Assembly: GCA_045546975.1 (NCBI GenBank) | Contig: JAZQDV010000007.1 | Span: 73,176 to 137,175 of the forward strand | Reading direction: 5' to 3' | Length of the DNA stretch: 64,000 nucleotides | Origin: Eubacteriales bacterium | Lineage (GTDB): Bacteria > Bacillota > Clostridia > Oscillospirales > JAAYXM01 | In this document: in pieces, positions 8,197 through 20,148 of the stretch | Layout: every line of letters starts with the position of its first letter | How positions within the stretch are numbered: position 1 is the stretch's first letter | The notes under the pieces: generated by a model | What the model saw: the letters and a program-made list of their open reading frames with translations, nothing else | Told to the model about the DNA's origin: nothing | Databases searched by the model: none | Made by a program: the position numbers and the translations under genes

Positions 8197-9039
8197 ATGA
8201 CAAAAGCAATAACACAAGATTTAATTGAAAATTTCAAAAACCATTTAATCGACGAAGAAAAAGCTTCTGCCACTCTGGAAAAATACATCCGCGACATCAA
8301 GGCTTTTTATGTGTGGGTTTCAGGACTTGAAATCAGCAAGCGAACTGTCCTTGACTATAAGGAGTATTTAATTGGTACTTTTGCACCGGCTTCAGTCAAT
8401 TCCATGCTGTCATCTCTCAATGCTTTTTTTCAGTTTAATGACTGGCATGAACTGAAGGTGAAAATGCTGAAAATCCAAAAGCGGATTTTTGTGCAAAAGG
8501 ACAGAGAACTCACAAAGGCAGAATATGTGAGGTTACTCAAAGCCGCAAAAGAAAAAAACAACGAACGACTTTATTTGTTGATGCAAACTATATGCTCAAG
8601 CGGAATACGGGTATCCGAACTAAAATATGTAACGGTTGAATCCTTAAAGTCAAGAAGCGCGACTATTAACAACAAAGGCAAAATGAGAATTGTCCTTTTG
8701 CCCGCAAAGCTTTGCAGTACCCTAATGGAATATGCAAAGAGGCAAAAAATATCAAGCGGGTCCGTCTTTGTTACAAAAACAGGTAACCCGCTTGACAGAA
8801 GCACTATCTGGAAAATGATGAAGGCGCTTTGCATGAGAGCTCAGGTTTCTGAGCGGAAGGTGTTTCCGCATAACCTGAGACACCTTTTCGCGCGTACCTT
8901 TTACACACTCGAAAAAGATATTGTAAGACTTGCAGACATTCTCGGACATTCAAGCGTAAACACTTCACGGATATACACAATGGAAACGGGTGAAATACAC
9001 CGAAAGAAACTTCAAAAACTTGGGCTCTTGCAATTATAA
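8197..9039 (+). CDS. Small tyrosine site-specific recombinase (candidate DNA invertase)
   Basis: 280 aa. N-terminal SAM-like core-binding region. Candidate catalytic residues: R in GIRVSEL, HNLRH, LGH, Y in SRIYT. No arm-binding domain. The stop codon is 2 nt from the left recombination site. Confidence 0.9.
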   Translation: MTKAITQDLIENFKNHLIDEEKASATLEKYIRDIKAFYVWVSGLEISKRTVLDYKEYLIGTFAPASVNSMLSSLNAFFQFNDWHELKVKMLKIQKRIFVQKDRELTKAEYVRLLKAAKEKNNERLYLLMQTICSSGIRVSELKYVTVESLKSRSATINNKGKMRIVLLPAKLCSTLMEYAKRQKISSGSVFVTKTGNPLDRSTIWKMMKALCMRAQVSERKVFPHNLRHLFARTFYTLEKDIVRLADILGHSSVNTSRIYTMETGEIHRKKLQKLGLLQL

Positions 9040-9040
9040 A

Positions 9041-9071
9041 AAGCACCACATAATTGAAATTATGTGGTAAG
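9041..9071. repeat. Left recombination site of the invertible segment (AAGCACCACATAATTGAAATTATGTGGTAAG)
   Basis: Palindromic arms ACCACATAA/TTATGTGGT around the asymmetric core TTGAAA. Its partner at 9304-9334 carries TTTCAA. Confidence 0.8.
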
Positions 9072-9303
9072 ACATAACAAATCAGGCATCAAAGGGAACT
9101 AAATTACCGTATGGCAAACGCAAATTTTTTCAAAAAACGACACAGTATTTAGACCGGTCTTGTTGATTTTGTAAAACCGGTCTGCTCCGTTGTGCCATTT
9201 TTAATGCACATTGATGATTTTTTCATAAAATAATTGCGAATCATTGACAAACCCCCTTCGAGCATATTATAATACGTATGCTCGAATATTATTTTGAAAC
9301 AGA
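9072..9303. other. Invertible DNA segment (inverton) carrying a promoter
   Basis: Bounded by the two 31-bp sites, adjacent to the recombinase gene, and contains the 9244-9273 promoter. Confidence 0.7.
9244..9273 (+). promoter_or_regulatory. Near-consensus sigma-A promoter inside the invertible segment, currently facing tetR and the giant gene
   Basis: TTGACA (9244-9249), 18-nt spacer, TATAAT (9268-9273). The -10 element sits in the loop of the CGAGCATA...TATGCTCG hairpin. Confidence 0.7.
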
Positions 9304-9334
9304 AAGCACCACATAATTTCAATTATGTGGTAAG
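9304..9334. repeat. Right recombination site (AAGCACCACATAATTTCAATTATGTGGTAAG)
   Basis: 29/31 identical to 9041-9071. The only differences turn the central TTGAAA into its reverse complement TTTCAA. Confidence 0.8.
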
Positions 9335-9418: not shown

Positions 9419-9976
9419 ATGGACAGTTTTGATGAGTTCGACAAAAAGAAAGCAATCATTGCAAAGACCTGGGATTATCTTTTGAAAACCGGCCTCGCGA
9501 ATGCTTCAATAGGAGATTTGTGCAGAGAGACAAAGCTTGCTCAAAGCAGCTTGTATTATTGGTTTGAAAACAAGGACGATATATGGATAAGCGCCGGAAA
9601 GTACGGCACCTCAAAGGTAGTTGACGCACTCCTGGATTTTACTATGAACCACACAAACGATGTCAGCAAGTACTTCGACACTCTTTTAGACGAGGTCGAA
9701 AAGTACAAGTACGAGTTGCGCCTGGCTGTTCAGATTACCACAAGTCCCGTGTTCGGTAATCGTATGCGTGATAAGGCAAAGGATTTCAGGCTGTGGTATG
9801 AGCGCTATGCCGAAAAATTGATGAACATATTTGGCTGTTCCTATCTACAAGCAGAAACCTTTATTTATTCTATCATCGCCTATGTAATTGACTACGCTAT
9901 ATGGGATGATAGAGACAAAACACAAATGCTGCTTGATAATCTTCGCACGAGACTAAGCGACAAGCTCGGCATTTAG
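9419..9976 (+). CDS. TetR/AcrR-family transcriptional regulator
   Basis: 185 aa. N-terminal HTH ASIGDLCRETKLAQSSLYYWFENKDDI. Confidence 0.8.
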   Translation: MDSFDEFDKKKAIIAKTWDYLLKTGLANASIGDLCRETKLAQSSLYYWFENKDDIWISAGKYGTSKVVDALLDFTMNHTNDVSKYFDTLLDEVEKYKYELRLAVQITTSPVFGNRMRDKAKDFRLWYERYAEKLMNIFGCSYLQAETFIYSIIAYVIDYAIWDDRDKTQMLLDNLRTRLSDKLGI

Positions 9977-10003: not shown

Positions 10004-10252
10004 TTGATAGAAAATACCTATGGAAGCTGGGAGCTCTTGGCAATAATTTTCGCAGTTCCCCTGCTATTGCTTATATTGCTTGCTTTTGTTGTGAATGTCT
10101 GGCTGCCCTTCATAAGAAACAGACATTACATAAAAAAAGAAATGCACAGATCAGACGGCGGTGAATACAGATACTGGAAGCGAGAGCTTAAACTGCTGTA
10201 TCTGAGGCACATTCCGATAGTCGGATGGTTTTTCCGTGAAAAATACAGATAA
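10004..10252 (+). CDS. Small single-pass membrane protein (TTG start)
   Basis: 82 aa. One clear TM helix (LLAIIFAVPLLLLILLAFVVNVWLPF) and a basic C-terminus. No family recognised. Confidence 0.45.
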   Translation: MIENTYGSWELLAIIFAVPLLLLILLAFVVNVWLPFIRNRHYIKKEMHRSDGGEYRYWKRELKLLYLRHIPIVGWFFREKYR

Positions 10253-10513: not shown

Positions 10514-13500
10514 TTGAGACTTAAAAGAATTATGGCTATGTTCCTTTGCTTTGCAATGGTACTTAGCACAATGGGAACAACAGTATTTGCAGAAAATACT
10601 GCTGTTGTTTCAGCCGAGGCAACCGCCGTTTCGGACAATAATCTGTATGTAAATACAGATTACAATTCCGAGACAGAAGGCTACGGCGTAACAAGATTTG
10701 CCAACTATAATGCGGCATATGCATATGCTGTAGCAAACAACACATCTGCAACCATTGTTGTCGAGAAAAACAACAGTATTTCCGGGTTCTGTTTTGATAA
10801 TAACCACAAGAATTATACTAAACTTGCGGTTGTAATTAAAGATGGAGCCACAATGGGTGTATCGCTTTCAAAGTGGGATATGACCTATCCTGTTACTGTA
10901 GAAGCAGGTGGTACTCTCACATGTGCTCGCCCGAAAAATGCCAGTGTCAGCAACATTCACATTAAGAATAAGCTAATCATTGGTACTGAGGGTTCTGATA
11001 AACAAGCATACTGCTATTTCCTAAGCGACAGCTACCAGGATTGTGATATTAGTATCCGTTACAACGGTTCTATTACTGCATACAATGCCGTTATGACCGT
11101 TCAGGATCTTGATGCACAAGGCAGCTTCACTGCAACCGATAGCAATATCACAGTTGACGGTGCATTCGCATCTGCCACTTGGTATGCTACAACGCTTACT
11201 GATTCGGATATGCAGATCAATGGTAACCAGATCAGCGGTGGCCTATCTGATTTTTCCGGTGGAGATAATAATCAACTCGGAAAAGTAACGCTGAACGGTG
11301 ATTCTTCTATTTCGTTTGCTGAAGGCTCAGCAGTTGATGTAGCGGCTACTGTTACTGTAAACGGAAACTCCTACATTACAGCTGACACGCTGACTGTTGA
11401 GAAAAATAAGAAAATTAACGTCAACGGTACATCTTCTGTAAGTGCTCAGACACTTACAAATAACGGTACCATCGCAACTACAAGCGGATCCACGGTAACT
11501 GCCAAAACAGTGAGCGAGGAATCCACCGGCACCGTAACGATTGACGGTGAAGAAGCTGCGTTTGATGAGAGCGGAAACCTTGTTCTCCCCGCTGCACCTG
11601 TCGCAACTGTCGACGGTGTACCTTACACAGAGCTTCAGGCTGCACTCGATGCGGCTGCAGCAGGCGAAGGCAATGTAACAGTTGAGATCCTTGAAAATAT
11701 CAATCTCACAAATGTTGACTGGAATCCCGTAACCGTAAGCGCTCCCAAATATCCTGTTGTTACTGTTAATGGTAACGGCAAGATAATTACAGGTCTGAAT
11801 GATATGCTCTTTGCGGGCACATGGGCTGGTGGCTCCGGCCTTATCATCAACGACCTTACAATTGCGGACTCCGCTATTATTAATGATAAAGACGATACAA
11901 ACGGCAATGTTGGCGTTGGTGCGTTCATTGGATTCCCCCAGGCAAGTGCAACAGTTACTCTCAACAACTGTCATCTTGTTGACTCCCGTGTTGAAGGTGG
12001 TCACTGGACAGGCGGTCTCATAGGTTATGCAGCAGGTTACGCTGGCAATGACGGTCCTGTATTCATGAATTTGACAATCAACGAGTGCTCCGTTACCGGC
12101 TCCACCATTACCGGTAAGGGCTCTGCAGGCGGTATCATCGGTCATGCTACAGGTAATGCTTGGACACAGGTTACCATCACAGATACAACTGTTTCCGGCA
12201 ATACCGTTGCGTCTACAGGTTCTTCTACCAACAAAGCCGGTGCTGTAATCGGTACTATTGGTGCTGCCGGTCAGGCGACAACTGTTAACGGTGTAGAAAA
12301 AACCGGCGGTGTATCCGTTGCAGCAACAGTTAGCGGTAACACTGTAACATCCAGCAGTACAACAATTACAACAATCTACGGTCGTCAGGGCACCGACACA
12401 GGTATGCTCTATGTATCTGGCGGTGAATATGACAATTATCCGATAGAAGAAAATGTTGCTTACGCTGCTCCTATCGAAGGGTATGAAATTGCAGATAATG
12501 GCAATGGTACTTGGGGCATAGCAGAAGAAACTATTCTCTCCGGCGCAGGTACACAGGAAGATCCTTATCTCATTGAAGATATCGATGACTTGACCCTCTT
12601 TAGAGATAACGTAAACAACGGAACAGATTATGACGGTCAGTATGTAAAGTTGATGAGTGATATCGACCTTACAAGCGTCGAAAACTGGATCCCGATTGGT
12701 GCGTATGGTTCACACGCAAACGAGATGACATTCCGCGGTTATTTTGATGGTAACAACAAAACTATCAGCAATCTGACCGTCAATGACACAACAAGCACAG
12801 CTGATATACTTGGCTTGTTCGGTCATATTCATGGCGACGGTATGAAGAATACTTTGGAGCCGTCTGTCAAGAATCTGACATTGACCAATGTAAACATCTC
12901 AAGCACAGACAGCGCTTCAAGAATCGGCGGTCTTGCAGGTAATCCTTACACATGTTATCTCGAGAATGTACATGTCTCAGGAACTATTTCAGGCGGTAAG
13001 TGGACCGGCGGTATCGCAGGTAACTGTTACACAGTATTTGAAAACTGTTCATTTACCGGAACTGTTGACAGTAACAACCAGGCAGGTGGTATTGCCGGCG
13101 CAGGCGATGCTCGTGTATACAACAGCAAGGTCATCGGTGATATTACCGCTACATATTGGGCAGGCGGTATCATCGGTAACGGTCAGGAAGGCGCTTCTGC
13201 TGTAGGCTGTTATGCAAAGGGTACTGTTACTGCTGAAAGCAACTGGTACTTTGGTGTCGGTGGTATTGCCGGTGTTGGCGGACACGGCTACGAAGGCAGT
13301 GTTTATGAAGATAACTACTTCGACGGTGAAGTATATCTCGGAGAAACCAAGGTAAATGCAATCGTTGTCGGTTTTGTAAACGCAGACGGCAACGAAGCAA
13401 TGAATACAGTTGTAGATGGCAACTCATGGAATACTGAATACTATGCAGCAGATACCCCGGTCGTTGTTACAGCTGATGTAACATCAGATATTTCTCCTGA

Positions 13501-16500
13501 GGACTGGGCAGCGTCCGCATCTGAGGAAAAGAGCTCAGTTCGTAACAACAATCTCGTTATGTTGGAAAGCGACATTCAGTATGTAGATGCAACTTCTATG
13601 GATAATGTTACCATTATGAAGTTCTCTGAGGTAACTGAAGAAGAGGTTGAGGTCCAGATCGAGAAAAACAACCTTGTTGCAAAGATAGGTGAAACCGGAT
13701 TCGCATCTCTCGCAGAAGCTATCGTGGCTGCAAATGCTATGACAGGCGATGTCACTGTTGAAATTTACGCTAAGGTTGAATATAACGACGCAACAGCAAG
13801 CCTTACAGGTGCATATGATTCTATCAACTTTGTTGGTAAAACAGAAGATGCTGAAATTTCTATCACCAGAAATGGCTCTAATGGTTACATTTCAGGCGAG
13901 GGCAATGATTGTAAGGTAACATTTACAGACCTTATTCTTTCAAAGCCCGAAGGGCATTACGCAAATGATGCGGGCTTCATGAACATGGCGTTCAGTGTTT
14001 ACAGAGTTGCCTCTGTCAAATATACGAACTGTCAGTTCCCCAACGGTGCATGTGCGGCAGGATGCCCGACTACATATACAAACTGTACTTTTGAAAAATC
14101 TCACGAAAAGTATGCTTTATGGGCATATGGTACAGAGGTTGTAGTTGACGAGTGTACATTCGATGATGACAGAGGTATAAAGATGTATGCTGAGGGCTCT
14201 GCAAAAACAACCGAACTTACAGTTACGAACACGGACTTCTCTAAATTGACATCAAAGCCTGCTATCGTAGCTACACTCGGCCAGAGCATAACTCTTTCAG
14301 GCAATACATATTCTGCCAAGGGTGTTCTCGAGCTTGAGGATAACGGCAGCTCCAACGGTATTGAAATTACTTCCGAGGATGTTGTGACCTGTATCAGTGA
14401 CGCATATCCGGACGGATGCGGTGTTCTTGTTGACGGTGCCATCTATCGTACTGTTGCAGAAGCAGCAGAAGTTGCAGAGGAAGGCAGCACGGTAACACTT
14501 CTTCACAATTCAACAGAAACAGTTGAACTTTCAGAGGGCGTAACCCTTGACAAGAACGGCTTCACTGCTGACGGTGTAACTGTTAAAGTATCTGTTGCCG
14601 CAAAAATCGGTGAGACATATTACGAGACCGTTCAGGCGGCAATCAATGCGGCGCAGAGTGGCGACACCGTTGAAATTCTCCCCGGAGAATATGACCCTAT
14701 CAACATCAGCAGCAAGAATATCACCATTCAGGGTACCGTAGGTGATAACGGTGAATTGCTTACCACCATCAAGGGCGGCAATCCTGCAATTACCGGCCAC
14801 TCTTTTAACGGTACGATTAAGGATCTTAAGATCGTTGATGCATGGAAGGTTATGTATGCAGAACCGGCAGGAAATATAACCGTTGATAATGTTTATGTAA
14901 CCGGTGCTACATACGGTTTCCACCTTGTAGCTTATTCTGAAGGTCTGACATGGACTATCCAGAATAGCTATATGGATTTGCGTTGGGCAAACTCCTTAGG
15001 TGTATACAAAGACGGTGATGCAGAAATCATCATCAAGGGTAACGAATTTGTTTCAACAGATCCGTACTACTCTGATTACGGTGCTCTTCATGTGAATTCG
15101 TTCTTGCCGAATGTAACTGTTGAAGAGAACATTTTCCGTGAAAACGCAAAGATTTACATCGATGCTTCTGTAACGGACACTTCCAACATCAATATTTCCA
15201 AGAACTATCATGCTGACGGTGTTGAAAATGCATTCGCAGATGATACTGACGGCGTGACGGTAAAAATTGATTCGTACTATACCGTAATAGAAGAAGACGG
15301 TACTCTTTCAGGCCTTGTAGAAGTTGTTGATCCCGCCGCAAAAATCGGCGATACAACATACGAAACACTTGCAGCGGCTATCGCGGCTGTCAAGGAAGGC
15401 GAAACAATCACAATGCTTGCTGATACAACTGTTTCAGAGAATGTTACACTTCCTGCAGGCATTACATTTAACGGTAATGGAAAGAAGATCAGCAGAGAAA
15501 ACGGTGCAATTATTTATGCGGGCGGCGAATTGACATTTGAAGGATATACAACTATTGCTAATTTCAATGCCAACGGCAAAACAATTAACATTGGCGAGGG
15601 TGCAACCCTTGAAACAACTGACGGAAGAATGGTTATCGGTCACGGAGCTACATTTAACATTACAGGCTCGATTGCCGATGCGAAAACTGCAGATGTAACA
15701 AATATTACACCTTCCCTCATTGCCCCCGGAGTATCATTCACAGGTGCAGGTGTGAACTTTAATGTAACAAATGCATATGTTAAATTTACAGCTTACTGTT
15801 CTTCAAAAAACAGTAATGCGAGCGGCACATATAACATTAATGTAAATAACAGCATTTGGGAACAGACAGGTTCTTTGGTTTTCTCAGAGCCTACAAACGG
15901 AATGGACCCGACCTTTAACTTCAAAGTTAAAGACAGCGTACTTAACAGCACAAGCCACCTTGTTTTTGCTGTAACAAAGGGCGAAATCGTTTTTGACAAT
16001 TCTGTTGTAAACGAAGGCGTACACAGACAGCTTGAAAACCGCAGCAACCTGACAATTAAGAACGGTTCTGTTGTTTATGCTGCTCACGCAACAAGCTCCA
16101 ACGCAAAGAATCCCGGCACAACTATCGTTGAAAACGCAACTTACATAGCTACCGGTGATTTTAGTGGCTCGGATGTCGGCACAGGCACACTTATTGTTAA
16201 GAAGGGTGCAATTGTGAATATGGGTAAGATTACCAAGGCAAATATCGTTGTTGACGCAACCGATATGGCTGCCGGCGATGTTGTTGGTATCACAGCTAAC
16301 CTGTCCGCCCTTGAAGGTACAATAAGTGTTGTCAATAACAATCTGGACGCTGAAATTGTAGACGGAGCGATTGTTCTTGTTGAAAAACCAGTTGCACAGA
16401 TTGGTGATGAGAAGTTTGCATCGCTCGAAGAGGCATTCAAAGCAGCAACCGATGGATGTACCATCACTTTGATGAGCGACATTACCGTAAGCGAGCTTTG

Positions 16501-18346
16501 GGATTGCCGTTACAACGGTGCAAAGTTCACTGTTCCTGTAACAATCGACGGTAACAACAAGACACTTAAACTCACGGGCGCAGTTGATGACAAGAACTGG
16601 AACACAGTATTCAGATTTGAGGCTGATGCTACAGTCAAGAACCTTACAATCGACGCGAGTGAAGCAACAGGCATCCAGAGAGGTATCTCTGCTAAGTCAA
16701 GCATTACTGTTGAAAACTGCACATTCATAGGTAACGGAACATCAACAAAGCGCGGTGTTATCTTCGGTGAAGGCGCAGGCACAGCACTTTCCGATGTAGT
16801 TGCAACAATTACAAACTCCAAATTCACAAATTGGAGCTATGGCGTTTCTGATAACCAGAGCGGTAAGGATGCAAAGTCTGTTTCTGTTACAGGCTCTACC
16901 TTCATTAACGCAAGCGCACTCTTGAGTGCTTCCGACTCGGTAACATTTACAGGCAATACTGTATCAGACGGTTATGTAAATATCACTTCTTACACCGCAG
17001 CTGATACTGCTACTGTTGTTGCAACAGGCAACAATCTTGTAGGCACTGATGATGAAATTACTGTAAATCCCGAAAACATAACCTCAGATGATTCATTCAT
17101 TACTCCTGTTGCCAAGATTGGCTCTAAGTATTATGAGACCTTAGATAAAGCAATCAGCAAGGCAGCAGTTGGTGACACAGTTGTTCTTTTAACTGATGTT
17201 GAGCTTTCGGATACAATTACAATTCCTACTGACAAGAAGATTACTCTTGACTTAAGCAGCAAGACAATCACAGGTACAGATAATACTGAAAAGAATTTCA
17301 GTCTTATCGATAACCGCGGTGATCTTACCATTACAGGAAACGGTACTATGACTCTTACTGCTACCGTCAACTCCGGATGGAACCGTTACTCTGCAGTTCT
17401 TGCAAACAACCCCGGCGGTAAGCTTACCATTGAAAACGGTACGTTTGAGCACCTCGGTGGCACCGATATGGCTTACGGTATTGACAACCTTACAAACGGC
17501 AAGGGAACCTATGCTGAAACCATAATTAACGGCGGTACAATCAAGTCCACTTACCGTGGTATCCGTCAGTTCCTCAACGGTATTGAAGCACAGAACATTC
17601 TCACAGTTAACGGCGGTACTGTTGAAGGCACTAACAAGTCTATCTGGATGCAGGATCCGAACAAGAACGCAAACACAGGTACACTTACTGTTACTGATGG
17701 CGCTACCTTGAACGGCGACGTGTATCTGACTGTAACAGAAGGTTCTACCGAATGGCCTGTTGAAGTAAGCATTGCTAAATCAGCAGTAAACGGACAGGTT
17801 CTTACTAATGGAAACGAGCCTGCAGGATATGAGCTGGTTGAAGAAAACGGAACCTACGGCGTAATAGAAAAAGAAATAGTAACTCCGTTCAAGGACGCTC
17901 CGTTGTTCTTGGCAGGACTTCCGGATGAAGTTATTGACGGTGTAACATACCACCCCGTTTATATGGCAACCTCTATTGATTCATTGAATTATAGAAAGGT
18001 CGGATTTGATTACACCTTCTCAATTTTCGATACTGAAACAGGCGAGGTTACTTTCTCGGTACCGTATACAACCGAAACAAGTGAGGTATACTCTTCTATC
18101 AGCGATGCTAATACAACATATACAGTTGACAGCATTGGCGGAAACGGTGAATACTTGTTTATGAATAAGTTGCTGTTCCACGCAGAACATTATCACAACA
18201 ATAACACAAAGGTTACCATCACACCGTACGCTATTGATACGAACGGAAACAAAATCACCGGCTGGACAATTGATATGACAAATGAATTCTATAAGTCACT
18301 TCAGTCTGGTGATGTAAAACAGGATATGTTCAAGGAGGGAAACTAA
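10514..18346 (+). CDS. Giant secreted surface protein (2610 aa) with GLUG-like motif blocks and multiple parallel beta-helix-type modules
   Basis: AGGAGG RBS 10 nt before the TTG start. Signal peptide MRLKRIMAMFLCFAMVLSTMGTTVFA|ENT. Two blocks of GG[LI][IA]G motifs. At least 6 recurrences of the module cap V-A-[KQ]-I-G-x-x-x-[YF]-x-[ST]-L-x-x-A. No LPXTG, SLH or dockerin seen. Confidence 0.9.
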   Translation: MRLKRIMAMFLCFAMVLSTMGTTVFAENTAVVSAEATAVSDNNLYVNTDYNSETEGYGVTRFANYNAAYAYAVANNTSATIVVEKNNSISGFCFDNNHKNYTKLAVVIKDGATMGVSLSKWDMTYPVTVEAGGTLTCARPKNASVSNIHIKNKLIIGTEGSDKQAYCYFLSDSYQDCDISIRYNGSITAYNAVMTVQDLDAQGSFTATDSNITVDGAFASATWYATTLTDSDMQINGNQISGGLSDFSGGDNNQLGKVTLNGDSSISFAEGSAVDVAATVTVNGNSYITADTLTVEKNKKINVNGTSSVSAQTLTNNGTIATTSGSTVTAKTVSEESTGTVTIDGEEAAFDESGNLVLPAAPVATVDGVPYTELQAALDAAAAGEGNVTVEILENINLTNVDWNPVTVSAPKYPVVTVNGNGKIITGLNDMLFAGTWAGGSGLIINDLTIADSAIINDKDDTNGNVGVGAFIGFPQASATVTLNNCHLVDSRVEGGHWTGGLIGYAAGYAGNDGPVFMNLTINECSVTGSTITGKGSAGGIIGHATGNAWTQVTITDTTVSGNTVASTGSSTNKAGAVIGTIGAAGQATTVNGVEKTGGVSVAATVSGNTVTSSSTTITTIYGRQGTDTGMLYVSGGEYDNYPIEENVAYAAPIEGYEIADNGNGTWGIAEETILSGAGTQEDPYLIEDIDDLTLFRDNVNNGTDYDGQYVKLMSDIDLTSVENWIPIGAYGSHANEMTFRGYFDGNNKTISNLTVNDTTSTADILGLFGHIHGDGMKNTLEPSVKNLTLTNVNISSTDSASRIGGLAGNPYTCYLENVHVSGTISGGKWTGGIAGNCYTVFENCSFTGTVDSNNQAGGIAGAGDARVYNSKVIGDITATYWAGGIIGNGQEGASAVGCYAKGTVTAESNWYFGVGGIAGVGGHGYEGSVYEDNYFDGEVYLGETKVNAIVVGFVNADGNEAMNTVVDGNSWNTEYYAADTPVVVTADVTSDISPEDWAASASEEKSSVRNNNLVMLESDIQYVDATSMDNVTIMKFSEVTEEEVEVQIEKNNLVAKIGETGFASLAEAIVAANAMTGDVTVEIYAKVEYNDATASLTGAYDSINFVGKTEDAEISITRNGSNGYISGEGNDCKVTFTDLILSKPEGHYANDAGFMNMAFSVYRVASVKYTNCQFPNGACAAGCPTTYTNCTFEKSHEKYALWAYGTEVVVDECTFDDDRGIKMYAEGSAKTTELTVTNTDFSKLTSKPAIVATLGQSITLSGNTYSAKGVLELEDNGSSNGIEITSEDVVTCISDAYPDGCGVLVDGAIYRTVAEAAEVAEEGSTVTLLHNSTETVELSEGVTLDKNGFTADGVTVKVSVAAKIGETYYETVQAAINAAQSGDTVEILPGEYDPINISSKNITIQGTVGDNGELLTTIKGGNPAITGHSFNGTIKDLKIVDAWKVMYAEPAGNITVDNVYVTGATYGFHLVAYSEGLTWTIQNSYMDLRWANSLGVYKDGDAEIIIKGNEFVSTDPYYSDYGALHVNSFLPNVTVEENIFRENAKIYIDASVTDTSNINISKNYHADGVENAFADDTDGVTVKIDSYYTVIEEDGTLSGLVEVVDPAAKIGDTTYETLAAAIAAVKEGETITMLADTTVSENVTLPAGITFNGNGKKISRENGAIIYAGGELTFEGYTTIANFNANGKTINIGEGATLETTDGRMVIGHGATFNITGSIADAKTADVTNITPSLIAPGVSFTGAGVNFNVTNAYVKFTAYCSSKNSNASGTYNINVNNSIWEQTGSLVFSEPTNGMDPTFNFKVKDSVLNSTSHLVFAVTKGEIVFDNSVVNEGVHRQLENRSNLTIKNGSVVYAAHATSSNAKNPGTTIVENATYIATGDFSGSDVGTGTLIVKKGAIVNMGKITKANIVVDATDMAAGDVVGITANLSALEGTISVVNNNLDAEIVDGAIVLVEKPVAQIGDEKFASLEEAFKAATDGCTITLMSDITVSELWDCRYNGAKFTVPVTIDGNNKTLKLTGAVDDKNWNTVFRFEADATVKNLTIDASEATGIQRGISAKSSITVENCTFIGNGTSTKRGVIFGEGAGTALSDVVATITNSKFTNWSYGVSDNQSGKDAKSVSVTGSTFINASALLSASDSVTFTGNTVSDGYVNITSYTAADTATVVATGNNLVGTDDEITVNPENITSDDSFITPVAKIGSKYYETLDKAISKAAVGDTVVLLTDVELSDTITIPTDKKITLDLSSKTITGTDNTEKNFSLIDNRGDLTITGNGTMTLTATVNSGWNRYSAVLANNPGGKLTIENGTFEHLGGTDMAYGIDNLTNGKGTYAETIINGGTIKSTYRGIRQFLNGIEAQNILTVNGGTVEGTNKSIWMQDPNKNANTGTLTVTDGATLNGDVYLTVTEGSTEWPVEVSIAKSAVNGQVLTNGNEPAGYELVEENGTYGVIEKEIVTPFKDAPLFLAGLPDEVIDGVTYHPVYMATSIDSLNYRKVGFDYTFSIFDTETGEVTFSVPYTTETSEVYSSISDANTTYTVDSIGGNGEYLFMNKLLFHAEHYHNNNTKVTITPYAIDTNGNKITGWTIDMTNEFYKSLQSGDVKQDMFKEGN

Positions 18347-18347
18347 G

Positions 18348-18509
18348 ATGAGAAATTACGAAGAACCAAGACTTGATATTATTGAGCTTGAAGCAAAGGA
18401 TATCATTCAGACAAGCGGCATCTTAACTCCGGGTGGAGATGCCCAGATTCCGGGAACGGGAGTAATCGTACCTATTCCGGGAGCTTCCGCCTTAGATAGC
18501 ACGTATTAA
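18348..18509 (+). CDS. 53-aa ORF starting 1 nt after the giant gene's stop codon
   Basis: The ATG starts 1 nt after the TAA of the giant gene. Translation: MRNYEEPRLDIIELEAKDIIQTSGILTPGGDAQIPGTGVIVPIPGASALDSTY. No signal peptide and no Cys. It shares TGVIVP[IL]P with the next gene. Confidence 0.5.
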   Translation: MRNYEEPRLDIIELEAKDIIQTSGILTPGGDAQIPGTGVIVPIPGASALDSTY

Positions 18510-18524
18510 GAAATAAATATCTCG

Positions 18525-18560
18525 AATAACGGGCAGGTAAACAGCCTGCCCGTTATTTGC
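18525..18560 (+). terminator. Hairpin (probably a partial terminator) after the 53-aa ORF
   Basis: AATAACGGGCAGG-TAAACAG-CCTGCCCGTTATT, followed by a weak T tract. Confidence 0.5.
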
Positions 18561-18589
18561 AGATACAAACAGCAAAGGAATGATAAACA

Positions 18590-19459
18590 GTGAGAAATTT
18601 CATTAAAACTATATGTTTGTTGTTAGCAACACTTAATTTGTTTTCCATTACTGCTTTTGCAGAGCTGGAGGTAGGCAATAATTTTGACCTTGGCAATTCA
18701 ACCGGCGTTATTGTTCCGCTTCCGAGCGATGATAAAGATGACGGACAGCAGGGTTCTTCATCCAATAGTAACAACAACGGAAATGGCAACGGCGGCAATA
18801 ACAGCGTTGGTGGCGGTGGCGGTTCTTACATACCGGCTACAAAACCGGACAAGGAGACCGAAACACAACAAGAATCAACGCAAACAGAAAATAATATCAA
18901 AACTTTTTCCGATATAAAACAAAACGATTGGTTTTACAGTGATGTAATGTTTGTTTCTAATAATAAGATTATGACAGGTACGAGCGAGAGTGAATTTTCA
19001 CCGAACACCACACTTAATCGTGCCATGATGATTACAATTTTACATAGGATTGACGGAGACAGTTCCACTTATAAAAAAGATATATTTAATGATGTTGAAA
19101 AAAACAGCTGGTACGAAAATGCTGTAAATTGGGGATATGAAAATAAAATCGTTACAGGCACAAGTGCGAATACCTTTGCTCCCAAAAACAATTTAACCCG
19201 TGAGCAGCTTTGCGTCATGCTTTACAATTATACAAAACATATTGGAGTTAAAACTGAATTTGCCGACACATCCTCTTTCTCTGACAACAACACAGTTTCA
19301 GATTGGGCAAAAGATGCCGTTTCCTGGGCAGTGCAGGAGAAGATTGTGACAGGAAAAGGAAACAATACACTTGCTCCCAAGGACAGTGCCACAAGAGCGG
19401 AAGCAGCAGCGGTTATAAGACGGTACACAGAAAAATTTGTAGAAATCGAGGAAAAATAA
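18590..19459 (+). CDS. Secreted protein with three C-terminal SLH (S-layer homology) domains
   Basis: GTG start. Signal peptide ...LFSITAFA|ELEV. Low-complexity N/G/S linker. Three SLH repeats (FSDI..DWFYSDV, FNDV..SWYENAVNW, FSDN..SDWAKDAVSW). Confidence 0.88.
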   Translation: MRNFIKTICLLLATLNLFSITAFAELEVGNNFDLGNSTGVIVPLPSDDKDDGQQGSSSNSNNNGNGNGGNNSVGGGGGSYIPATKPDKETETQQESTQTENNIKTFSDIKQNDWFYSDVMFVSNNKIMTGTSESEFSPNTTLNRAMMITILHRIDGDSSTYKKDIFNDVEKNSWYENAVNWGYENKIVTGTSANTFAPKNNLTREQLCVMLYNYTKHIGVKTEFADTSSFSDNNTVSDWAKDAVSWAVQEKIVTGKGNNTLAPKDSATRAEAAAVIRRYTEKFVEIEEK

Positions 19460-19460
19460 A

Positions 19461-19886
19461 TTGCCACCATCATTGATTTCCAGATCATTAAGGTTTTTTA
19501 TTACAAGCATAATTTGTTCTTTGCCCATATTTATCGGACAGTTGCTGTCAATCACAGATAACGGTATATTGTTTTTTTCTTTTATAGTTTTTGCTATTGA
19601 GATAGGCATTGACTCATACCATTTTTCTTTTGTTTTCTTAGGAATAGAAAATTATTGTTTTTATCAGCTTTTGCCACTCGTTATATATCTTATTACCGGT
19701 TTTTTTACTTGTTTGTTATTTCCGCCTTTTATATTCAACAGAATTTTTCTGCCTCTAAGATTTGCAGGAATCTTCGGAATGAGTACTATTGCATCAATAG
19801 CCATCACTTCGATAATCTTTATAGTAATAGTGACCGTTCTGAGGTTTTTCGGAGCAAGAGCAGGTCGTTTATTTGCAAATATGTAA
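19461..19886 (+). CDS. Possible polytopic membrane protein (TTG start)
   Basis: 141 aa, very hydrophobic, AT-rich DNA, no clear RBS. It could be an artefact of composition. Confidence 0.3.
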   Translation: MPPSLISRSLRFFITSIICSLPIFIGQLLSITDNGILFFSFIVFAIEIGIDSYHFSFVFLGIENYCFYQLLPLVIYLITGFFTCLLFPPFIFNRIFLPLRFAGIFGMSTIASIAITSIIFIVIVTVLRFFGARAGRLFANM

Positions 19887-19956: not shown

Positions 19957-20148
19957 ATGTTTGGAAAGAATAAAATATGTACAAAATGCAAGATAGGAAA
20001 AGAAAGTTACGAACTTGATAAACTTTCTCATGTATGTCCGTACATTGTGTGTTGGAAACACGGCAAATGCAAATACTTTTTACCACTTGAAAAGCCAGAA
20101 CGAACAGATTTCTTTAAGAGACTCAAAAATTATGTGTTGCATAAATAG
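19957..20148 (+). CDS. Small Cys-rich protein (63 aa), family unknown
   Basis: AAAGGAGA RBS 6 nt upstream. CTKC...CPYIVC...C pattern suggests metal binding. Confidence 0.5.
   Translation: MFGKNKICTKCKIGKESYELDKLSHVCPYIVCWKHGKCKYFLPLEKPERTDFFKRLKNYVLHK

Follow-up and report, generated by a model that had tools for sequence, protein, structure and literature searches.

Firmicute lasso-peptide gene clusters of the paeninodin and pseudomycoidin type encode short precursors whose leader carries an aromatic-xx-P-x-L motif and a Thr two residues before a Gly-initiated core (PMC7533575, PMC10368454), together with a PqqD/B1 recognition protein, an HPr-kinase homologue, a PF14907 nucleotidyltransferase and an ABC exporter (PMC8498205). 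In a different context, the SLH-anchored scaffoldins of cellulosomes (SdbA, OlpB, Orf2p) hold large secreted proteins at the cell surface through non-covalent cohesin-dockerin pairs, whereas in the TapA-SipW-TasA system of Bacillus subtilis, as in chaperone-usher donor-strand exchange, an anchoring or assembly protein donates a short N-terminal segment to the Ig-like fold of the main secreted protein (PMC10151520, PMC9674648). Finally, large surface proteins are in some cases controlled by invertible promoters, such as the gut invertons and CwpV/RecV of C. difficile.

The locus described here shows partial similarities to each of these systems. A 53-residue peptide gene, located between a giant secreted protein and a cell-wall-anchored protein, carries the same 8-residue motif as the free tip of that anchor, and similar pairings with other motifs recur in many related gene clusters of gut and rumen Clostridia, which points to an undescribed peptide-based docking system. 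As in lasso clusters, the leader motif and Thr are present, and distant cassettes carry the recognition protein, the HPr-kinase homologue, the nucleotidyltransferase and the exporter. However, no lasso cyclase or B2 protease was found among the called genes of any cassette, where an S24/S26-like peptidase takes that place, the ring-forming Asp/Glu is not conserved, the clusters nearly always lie next to a large secreted protein, and the core is copied at a tether tip. As in cellulosomes, an SLH-anchored protein with a long linker would hold a large secreted protein non-covalently through a module at the C-terminus of the cargo, but no cohesin or dockerin domain is detected by Pfam in either protein, the anchor offers only an 8-residue linear motif, the folded module would be on the cargo, and a soluble mimic of the ligand is encoded alongside. 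With regard to TapA/TasA, there is no sequence relationship and no evidence of polymerisation, and the donor segment also exists as a separate peptide with a leader, although related cassettes contain a SipW/archaeal-type signal-peptidase-like gene with weak matches.

Organization of the locus

The window, that is, the whole stretch of 64,000 nucleotides analysed, contains one copy of a conserved cassette with the following features:

8197..9039 (+), tyrosine recombinase of the phage-integrase family, first gene of the conserved cassette
9045..9331 (no strand assigned), putative invertible promoter element with perfect 24-nt inverted repeats at 9045-9068 and 9308-9331
9419..9976 (+), TetR-like regulator, 185 aa
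10004..10252 (+), small membrane protein, 82 aa, conserved upstream of the giant gene
10514..18346 (+), giant secreted protein, 2610 aa, with a signal peptide, beta-helix-type repeats and no known anchor
17870..18343 (+), type A C-terminal domain of the giant (aa 2453-2610), the proposed receptor for the motif
18348..18509 (+), 53-aa precursor-like peptide, with leader aa 1-24 (nt 18348-18419, YEEPRL...DIIQTSG) and core aa 25-53
18456..18479 (+), TGVIVPIP motif in the peptide core
18518..18565 (+), strong conserved hairpin followed by a short T-run, a probable, possibly leaky, terminator between the giant/peptide unit and the SLH gene
18590..19459 (+), wall tether, 289 aa, with a predicted signal peptide (18590-18661), a motif-bearing N-terminal tip, a G/N/S-rich linker and three SLH repeats
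18701..18724 (+), TGVIVPLP motif at the free N-terminal tip of the tether
19461..19886 (+), membrane protein of 141 aa with four predicted transmembrane segments by inspection (4TM protein)
19957..20148 (+), 63-aa Cys-rich (CxxC) protein conserved at the end of the cassette

The recombinase was identified by Pfam (Phage_integrase, E=3e-24) and holds the same position in three related loci, L006, L007 and L010 (related loci are hereafter numbered with L). The inverted repeats (0 matches expected by chance) enclose a consensus promoter, TTGACA-17-TATAAT, which starts at 9246 and points towards the operon, and the same architecture follows the integrase gene in L006 (twice), L007 and L010. The cassette also appears phase-variable, with the recombinase, repeats and enclosed promoter expected of an inverton, although only one orientation is present in the assembly, inversion has not been observed and the presence of both orientations in a population was not tested, as this needs raw reads. 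Contrary to a switch placed directly before the surface protein, this one sits upstream of the TetR-like gene. The TetR assignment rests on a weak Pfam TetR_N hit and on a position conserved in L006, L007, L010 and L011. The small membrane protein was matched by tblastn with an 86-aa ORF of L006 (50% identity, E=5e-15), and the Cys-rich protein with a 62-aa ORF of L007 (46% identity, E=5e-13). The 4TM protein starts 1 nt after the SLH stop, carries a conserved FNRIFLPLRF and invariant Cys, Asn and Arg residues, is 52-60% identical across both cassette classes described below and is present in every SLH-type cassette. It shows no Pfam hit and its function is unknown, but it may be an exporter.

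The giant shows no anchor domain in Pfam searches, and its end (...SGDVKQDMFKEGN) is hydrophilic and lacks LPXTG, so that the features expected for sortase anchoring are absent. The small ORF (MRNYEEPRLDIIELEAKDIIQTSGILTPGGDAQIPGTGVIVPIPGASALDSTY) has an AGGAGG Shine-Dalgarno sequence 9 nt upstream, and its ATG lies 1 nt after the stop of the giant ORF. The hairpin that follows it (-31.9 kcal/mol) has the same ACGGGCAGG...CCTGCCCGT stem in all class 1 and class 2 loci. The SLH ORF has a GTG start and three stretches matching PF00395 (E=1.1e-34). Its signal peptide (MRNFIK, a hydrophobic core and the cleavage site TAFA|ELEVG) was recognized by inspection and not by a dedicated predictor, and the motif is located 13 residues after that site. 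No plasmid match and no tandem repeats were found.

Conservation of the shared motif

The sequence-only reading had reported that the small ORF and the mature N-terminus of the SLH protein share a TGVIVPxP motif held at the protein level, and this observation is confirmed. The pattern G[VIL][VIL][VIL]PxP occurs only at these two places in the six-frame translation of all 64 kb. A 7-of-8 match arose in 2 of 3000 shuffles, and the analytic expectation is 2.4e-4. The two DNA copies share 17 of 24 nt, with six synonymous third-position changes and one first-position change (I/L), so that six of the seven identical residues use different codons. The copy-specific codons are kept in orthologous loci, which indicates that this is not a recent duplication or gene conversion. 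One detail of that reading, a shared ELE upstream of both motifs, is not supported as homology and seems coincidental: in the small ORF it lies in the family-wide leader, where orthologues have EFE or EID, whereas in the SLH protein it is the mature N-terminus, [ED]L[EQK][VTK]G.

A lack of conservation in orthologous loci had been put forward from the start as one of the results that would speak against the docking idea. The opposite was found, since both copies are conserved in every orthologous locus recovered (class 1), while the adjacent linkers diverge. The motif appears as G[TV]G[VT][IV]VP[ITV]P in 12 homologues of the peptide, and STGVIVPLP is invariant at the SLH tip in all class 1 loci.

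A family of precursor-like peptides

The small ORF is not an orphan, but a member of a large uncurated family of 30-60-aa peptides with a lasso-type leader (YxxPxL...TSG) and a hypervariable core, which resembles a RiPP precursor (a ribosomally made peptide that is cut and often modified). No Pfam or NCBIfam model matches it. The family comprises 106 representative clusters at 50% identity, which share profile positions 1-30 and diverge afterwards, with Y4, P7, L9 and T22 of the leader conserved. A large secreted protein lies directly upstream of the peptide in nearly all loci. A lasso-peptide identity was nevertheless rejected, as there is no cyclase or B2 protease among the called genes of any cassette or in the window and no conserved ring acceptor at core position 7-9: the window peptide has G24...D31, but homologues P0002-P0004 have Asn there and others differ.

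More distant cassettes (L022-L024 and many of L025-L104) carry PqqD, an HPr-kinase-like protein (ScmC), an S24/S26-like peptidase, an ABC exporter and a nucleotidyltransferase, and at least 505 metagenomic stretches encode a relative of the HPr-kinase-like gene that accompanies these cassettes. On the other hand, no ScmC, PqqD, S24, nucleotidyltransferase or dedicated ABC gene was found in the 64-kb window, the part of the genome that was searched, and the peptide has no signal peptide, so that its export here is assumed. Literature searches on SynChlorMet, on PF14907/PF05402, on HPr kinase with PqqD and S24, on RiPPs with SLH proteins and adhesins, and with the sequence word DVITTS found nothing on this family or cassette.

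Co-variation of peptide, tether and giant

In a second class of cassettes (class 2), the peptide carries ENE[LT]PFNP and the SLH N-terminus ENETPFLP, and the C-terminal domain of the giant is swapped for an unrelated one (type B). The giants are mosaics that keep the signal peptide and the C-terminal domain. The window giant shows 78% identity to that of L006 over the last 158 aa, while the middle of the protein is rearranged. Class 1 and class 2 giants are 56-72% identical in shared blocks up to the domain boundary (similarity stops at aa 2458-2468), and hhalign finds no relation between the type A and type B domains (probability 0.1%). The SLH proteins are 57-66% identical overall between the classes, but their predicted signal peptides and motif-bearing N-termini differ. 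The type B domain family occurs with several motif classes, so domain family alone does not predict the motif.

The pairing of peptide core with the tip of an envelope tether recurs with at least seven motif classes and four anchor types. Examples from more distant cassettes, in which both members of each pair run to the stop codon, are PIELPLVPLR/PIELPLVPLR, DDLLERD/DDFLERDND, DDGMNWSPLTPIE/DDGLNWSPLVPVE, ITLPEI/IELPEI, DENEWA/DENEWA and GELPFVPAV/IELPFVPAL. The motif always sits at the end opposite the anchor, being N-terminal with C-terminal SLH or transmembrane anchors, and C-terminal with an N-terminal lipobox or transmembrane anchor. In a set of hand-picked loci, the own-locus peptide/tether score sum was 308 against 201 +/- 18 in permutations, a value reached in 0 of 100000. 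In an automatic set, 12 of 29 loci exceeded the cross-locus 95th percentile, whereas the other 17 showed no match above it.

A possible docking system

The analysis itself establishes that the 8-residue motif is held by selection in two unrelated contexts (the tip of a wall-anchored, linker-rich tether, and the core of a small peptide with a lasso-type leader translationally coupled to the giant), that the two copies change together across cassette types, and that when they change, the C-terminal domain of the giant changes too. What follows is our inference, and a tentative one. The giant would be exported by Sec without an anchor of its own, and its C-terminal domain would bind the short proline-containing motif, which the SLH protein, fixed to the wall by its C-terminal repeats, would present on a flexible linker, holding the giant on the cell surface. 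The small peptide would lose its leader after ...TSG and be exported, through PqqD, the HPr-kinase-like protein, the S24/S26-like peptidase and the ABC transporter in relatives, and here by machinery supplied in trans or by the 4TM protein. The exported peptide would be a soluble copy of the ligand occupying the same site, either as a cap during or after export of the giant, or as a competitor that sets the ratio of tethered to released protein. In this view, the conserved terminator after the peptide gene would make the tether sub-stoichiometric, and the inverted-repeat promoter element would switch the whole module on and off.

This scheme agrees with the fact that the giant, the tether and, if it is exported, the peptide are the only cassette products predicted to be wholly extracytoplasmic, and TapA/TasA offers a precedent for an anchor donating a terminal segment to a partner's Ig-like fold. 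However, no binding was computed or measured. For the C-terminal domain alone, AF2 with a two-row alignment gave a beta-sandwich at a poor pLDDT of 59, Foldseek against PDB returned only generic Ig-like sandwiches at TM about 0.35, which is uninformative, and a word-indexed search with the domain found a single fragment. A sandwich fold is thus predicted at low confidence, without a model of the domain together with the motif, and donor-strand complementation is neither favoured nor excluded by these data. Moreover, the C-terminal domain, the peptide and the SLH N-terminus are contiguous in the DNA, so their co-inheritance could be linkage, and only the similarity between the two motif copies requires a shared constraint.

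The interpretation offered by the sequence-only reading is therefore partly supported. It had proposed a strand-type ligand for a domain of the giant, with the SLH protein as wall anchor in a two-component adhesin and the 53-aa peptide as a chaperone, competitor or plug. A shared ligand with the SLH protein as wall anchor is a good reading, but the peptide is not a generic chaperone, and both the strand-type binding mode and the giant as receptor remain inference.

A broader and more doubtful, though not excluded, possibility is that gut and rumen Clostridia use an undescribed modular surface-display system, in which variable giant cargo proteins would carry a hallmark C-terminal receptor domain, an envelope tether (anchored by SLH repeats, a lipid or a transmembrane helix) would present a short cognate motif at its free end, and a RiPP-type pathway derived from lasso-peptide machinery would make a soluble copy of that motif, which caps the cargo or releases it. 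Receptor domain and ligand would be exchanged together as specificity modules, and in the window's type the whole module would be switched by an invertible promoter. If the docking reading holds, this would be a new way for Gram-positive bacteria to hold very large adhesin- or enzyme-like proteins on the cell, through a linear motif at a tether tip instead of a sortase, SLH or cohesin-dockerin link on the cargo, and, to our knowledge, the first case in which a RiPP-type pathway makes a peptide that copies a segment of the cell's own surface protein. It would also assign a function to a large family of small genes, predict exchangeable receptor/ligand specificity pairs that could be reused for surface display, and link phase variation to surface architecture in abundant, mostly uncultured gut and rumen Clostridia.

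Alternative explanations

The motif could instead be a ligand for a partner other than the giant, such as a sensor kinase, another membrane protein, another cell or a host or plant surface. The small peptide would then be a diffusible signal of pheromone type, the tether would present the same epitope in cell-bound form, as a tethered agonist, decoy or adhesive tip, and the giant would simply be co-regulated cargo. The leader-plus-variable-core layout, the exporter, PqqD and peptidase of relatives, an AgrC-like kinase and a LytTR regulator next to the L022/L023 cassette, the several tandem precursors of some loci (L048) and the occurrence of the type B domain with several motif classes fit this idea. 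However, it seems less likely than the docking reading, given that the precursor is coupled to a large secreted protein in nearly all loci, with or without a kinase, that in class 1 its start lies 1 nt after the giant's stop, that the C-terminal domain swaps together with the motif, and that the window cassette has a TetR-like regulator and no peptide-sensing kinase. Less likely still, peptide and tether could be two substrates of one processing or modifying enzyme, such as a protease, a transpeptidase or the 4TM protein, with the motif as its recognition site. Cassettes encode an S24/S26-like peptidase, an HPr-kinase-like protein and a nucleotidyltransferase, the homologous enzymes of Firmicute lasso clusters modify the C-terminal residue of the peptide (PMC8498205), and the 4TM protein has the invariant residues mentioned above. 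But these enzymes have no signal peptide, whereas the tether tips are extracytoplasmic, in lipoprotein-type tethers the motif is the extreme C-terminus, so nothing lies beyond it to cleave, the 4TM protein shows no class-specific divergence, and the window lacks these enzymes.

A relic of an old duplication, or chance resemblance without shared function, perhaps with an unexpressed small ORF, is strongly disfavoured. The match is only 8 residues long and a comparable one did arise in shuffles, but both copies are conserved with saturated synonymous sites, they co-vary in at least seven motif classes, and the ORF has a strong Shine-Dalgarno sequence and is conserved at 45-75% identity in more than 12 homologues. 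A +1 frameshift fusion of the giant and the peptide was also considered and rejected, because the peptide has its own Shine-Dalgarno sequence, AAC-to-ACU re-pairing is poor, and class 2 loci have 26-42-nt spacers. Finally, two long Bacteroidetes-type proteins, P0005 and P0015, hit the peptide profile through a repeated DLDVSNIVKTSGAFTPG segment, which was judged to be chance similarity amplified by repeats.

A shared motif in the small peptide and the wall-anchored protein

The observation made in the sequence-only reading, that a 53-aa ORF and the neighbouring SLH protein share an eight-residue motif, holds as described. The features involved are the following:
10514..18346, ORF of the giant protein (2610 aa)
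18348..18509, forward strand, small ORF (53 aa)
18456-18479, TGVIVPIP motif within the small ORF
18590..19459, forward strand, SLH ORF with a GTG start (289 aa)
18701-18724, TGVIVPLP motif within the SLH ORF

The pattern G[VIL]3PxP occurs nowhere else in the six-frame translation of the 64-kb window. A 7-of-8 match between shuffled versions of the two proteins arose in 2 of 3000 trials, and the analytic expectation is 2.4e-4. The two DNA copies share 17 of 24 nt, and six of the seven differences are synonymous third positions. The small ORF is preceded by an AGGAGG Shine-Dalgarno sequence, and its ATG lies 1 nt after the stop codon of the giant ORF. The SLH protein contains three SLH repeats (Pfam E=1.1e-34) and, as judged by inspection, a signal peptide ending in TAFA|ELEVG. 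The giant protein shows a signal-peptide-like N-terminus, no Pfam or NCBIfam domain, and a hydrophilic C-terminus without any anchor signal.

Conservation in orthologous loci

Related loci (numbered here with the prefix L) come from gut and rumen metagenome-assembled genomes labelled as Clostridia bacterium, Congzhengia sp. (Oscillospiraceae) or Lachnospiraceae. The homologues of the small ORF with 66-73% identity all keep GTGVIVP[IV]PGA, and their contigs keep the gene order giant protein, small peptide, SLH protein and a protein of about 141 aa with four predicted transmembrane segments, judged by inspection (4TM protein). More distant homologues, with 45-64% identity, do the same. In every locus of the window type (class 1), the predicted mature N-terminus of the SLH protein reads [ED]L[EQK][VTK]GN[ND][FIL]D[LI][GS][NSD]STGVIVPLP, while the linker that follows diverges. 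Moreover, the two copies keep copy-specific codons across loci (GTA ATC GTA CCT in the peptide gene and GTT ATT GTT CCG in the SLH gene), which excludes recent gene conversion. A lack of motif conservation in orthologous loci had been put forward in the sequence-only reading as a result that would count against it, and these loci show the opposite. On the other hand, the upstream ELE that the same reading considered as shared is not homologous; in the peptide it belongs to the leader.

A family of small peptides with a lasso-type leader

A full HMMER search with the four closest peptides found 106 representative clusters at E<=1e-3, nearly all of them 30-60 aa long. Their members share M-[KR]-x-Y-E-x-P-x-h-x-h-h-x-F-x-x-x-D-[VI]-I-x-T-S-G and diverge completely after it. 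No Pfam or NCBIfam model matches any of the members tested, and the sequence word DVITTS occurs in no searchable paper. Two long Bacteroidetes-type surface proteins from the same search (P0005 and P0015) match the peptide profile 7-16 times through the repeated segment DLDVSNIVKTSGAFTPG, which was judged to be a chance resemblance amplified by repetition. The leader shows the aromatic-xx-P-x-L motif and the Thr near the cleavage site that characterise lasso-peptide leaders bound by the PqqD-type B1 protein (PMC7533575, PMC10368454, PMC8498205).

Distant members of the family sit in fuller cassettes (loci L022/L023 and L024), with the gene order large secreted protein, small peptide, linker-rich lipoprotein, ScmC/HPr-kinase-like protein, PqqD, S24/S26-like peptidase, ABC transporter and PF14907 nucleotidyltransferase. 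This is the accessory gene set of Firmicute lasso clusters, without the cyclase and the B2 protease. The same leader is used by a subfamily with Cys-rich cores (L042, L044, L054, L063, L067, L074 and L091), which are followed instead by a radical SAM enzyme of about 460 aa (Pfam Radical_SAM E=3e-19 in L042), whereas one locus (L048 5143-5900) has five tandem precursors with acidic cores, so that the leader platform serves several peptide chemistries. A metagenome scan with the ScmC-like protein found at least 505 relatives in gut and rumen samples.

Neither the window nor loci L001 and L012 have maturation or export genes nearby, and processing in the window must occur in trans, or through the 4TM protein, or not at all. 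Action in trans is made plausible by L006 (2483-4277 and 13045-14956), where one contig carries a full cassette followed by the start of a second one, with a second integrase, inverted-repeat element and TetR-like gene placed after a single ScmC-like/S24-like gene pair. This suggests several giant cassettes per genome that share one maturation set. The 4TM protein of the window (19461-19886, 141 aa) has invariant Cys19, Asp33, Asn93, Arg94 and Arg100 and the stretch FNRIFLPLRF, but no Pfam family. It is present in all SLH-type cassettes, which lack the ABC transporter seen in distant cassettes, and it may be the exporter, or an enzyme.

Co-variation of the peptide core and the tether end

The peptide core matches the free end of an envelope-tethered protein encoded beside it. 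The motif differs between cassettes, and the two copies change together.

Table. Peptide cores and tether ends by locus or class. Each line gives the locus or class, the peptide core, the tether end and the tether anchor; (end) marks the C-terminal end of the protein.
Class 1 (window type); GVIVP[ITV]P; GVIVPLP at the N-terminal tip; SLH repeats at the C-terminus
Class 2 (L010, L012, L015, L016); [EQ]NE[LT]PFNP; ENETPFLP at the N-terminal tip; SLH repeats at the C-terminus
L024; GELPFVPAV(end); IELPFVPAL(end); lipoprotein (N-terminal lipid)
L036; PIELPLVPLR(end); PIELPLVPLR(end); lipoprotein
L028; DDLLERD(end); DDFLERDND(end); lipoprotein
L040; DDGMNWSPLTPIE(end); DDGLNWSPLVPVE(end); lipoprotein
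L047; SPPEGKQVDPFAG(end); SPEGELLDPFE(end); lipoprotein
L067; DENEWA(end); DENEWA(end); N-terminal hydrophobic segment, type not examined
L073; ITLPEI(end); IELPEI(end); N-terminal transmembrane helix
L029, L032; TPFEP[VA](end); [ED]LPFVP[DA] just after the signal peptide; C-terminal transmembrane helix

The motif always lies at the end opposite the anchor. For 12 hand-picked loci, the summed own-locus score was 308 against 201 +/- 18 for permuted pairings, and no permutation in 100000 reached it. An automatic selection gave 29 non-redundant loci with a tether-like neighbour, of which 12 exceeded the cross-locus 95th percentile and 6 exceeded the 99th, although the null is inflated by related loci. 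The rule is therefore frequent but not universal. The lipoprotein-type tether of L024 (2020-2658) carries four motif-like segments (GELPVIF, DLPEIMV, GETPFIPAV and the terminal IELPFVPAL), and may therefore be multivalent. In L020 (2226-2642), an ORF joins the N-terminus of the ScmC-like protein (MFTVKLAELNICIENKY) to the C-terminal SLH repeats, apparently as a deletion or recombination remnant that removed the tether tip, and the peptide at this locus has a third type of core (GGENGTISGNAGSGIW).

Exchange of the C-terminal domain of the giant protein

A large secreted protein is encoded immediately upstream of the precursor in nearly all loci, including those of the radical SAM type. These proteins differ greatly in length and internal architecture, but share a C-terminal domain. 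The type A domain is found in the class of the window, and is 78% identical between the window and L006 over the last 158 aa, although the middle of the protein is rearranged. The type B domain was identified in 19 loci, and neither type has a Pfam model. Class 1 and class 2 giants share internal blocks at 56-72% identity, but the similarity stops at window residue 2458-2468, which is the start of the type A domain, and the two domain types are unrelated by hhalign (probability 0.1%). Between the classes, the SLH proteins are 57-66% identical overall, although their predicted signal peptides and motif-bearing tips differ; the 4TM proteins are 52-60% identical. So a contiguous module, which consists of the C-terminal domain, the peptide core and the SLH signal peptide with its tip, has been exchanged as a unit.

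A possible docking system for the giant protein

The sequence comparisons themselves show that two copies of a short motif are held by selection, that they co-vary between the peptide and the tether tip, that the motif lies at the end opposite the anchor, and that the cassette is coupled to a giant secreted protein whose C-terminal domain is swapped together with the motif. What follows is inferred from them. The motif would be a short linear ligand, and its receptor would be the C-terminal domain of the giant protein, given that the giant, the tether and, if exported, the peptide are the only cassette products predicted to be wholly extracytoplasmic. In this view, the SLH protein would tether the otherwise anchorless giant, and the leader-bearing peptide would be processed and exported as a soluble mimic, acting either as a cap or as a competitor. 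No interaction was computed, the structural model of the domain alone is poor, and the fold search was uninformative. The proposal in the sequence-only reading of a ligand for a domain of the giant protein, with the SLH protein as wall anchor and the peptide competing for or plugging the same site, is partly supported. An anchoring protein that supplies a terminal segment to the Ig-like fold of a partner has a precedent in TapA, which donates its N-terminus to TasA (PMC10151520, PMC9674648).

The translational coupling of the peptide to the giant, together with a conserved strong hairpin before the SLH gene (18518-18565, -31.9 kcal/mol), fits a peptide made in step with the giant and a scarcer tether. 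The hairpin is followed by a short T-run, and its ACGGGCAGG/CCTGCCCGT stem is conserved in all class 1 and class 2 loci, with a clearer T-tract in those of class 2. It is probably a partly leaky terminator that lowers the expression of the tether relative to the giant and the peptide.

Because the swapped parts are contiguous, co-inheritance with the C-terminal domain could be linkage, and only the similarity between the two motif copies demands a common constraint. Moreover, the type B domain occurs with several motif classes. The main alternative is that the common partner is something else, such as a sensor kinase, in which case the peptide would be a signal. An AgrC-like histidine kinase (HATPase_c_5) and a LytTR response regulator are encoded divergently from the large secreted protein of the distant cassette L022 (1700-3851), which fits peptide sensing in some lineages.

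With regard to described systems, the peptide works like a RiPP precursor with a lasso-type leader, but fails as a lasso peptide because there is no cyclase, no B2 protease and no conserved ring acceptor. The SLH protein is a bona fide member of its class, whereas the proposed tethering works like an anchoring scaffoldin or like TapA/TasA, but has none of their domains. No curated family and, within the open-access literature searched, no paper describing the peptide family, the cassette or the peptide/tether mimicry was found. The architecture can therefore be regarded as new in kind, although built from familiar parts, and its function as unproven.

Other elements of the cassette

Two further small conserved genes of the cassette have no known function:
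10004-10252, 82-aa single-pass membrane protein, between the TetR-like gene and the giant gene
19957-20148, 63-aa CxxC-rich protein

Finally, perfect 24-nt inverted repeats, ACCACATAATTGAAATTATGTGGT and ACCACATAATTTCAATTATGTGGT, lie 239 nt apart between the tyrosine recombinase gene and the TetR-like gene (9045-9331). Each repeat is itself a palindrome with an asymmetric GA/TC centre, and the pair encloses a consensus TTGACA-17-TATAAT promoter that points at the operon. This element looks like a phase-variable invertible promoter, and the same layout is present in L006 (twice), L007 and L010.
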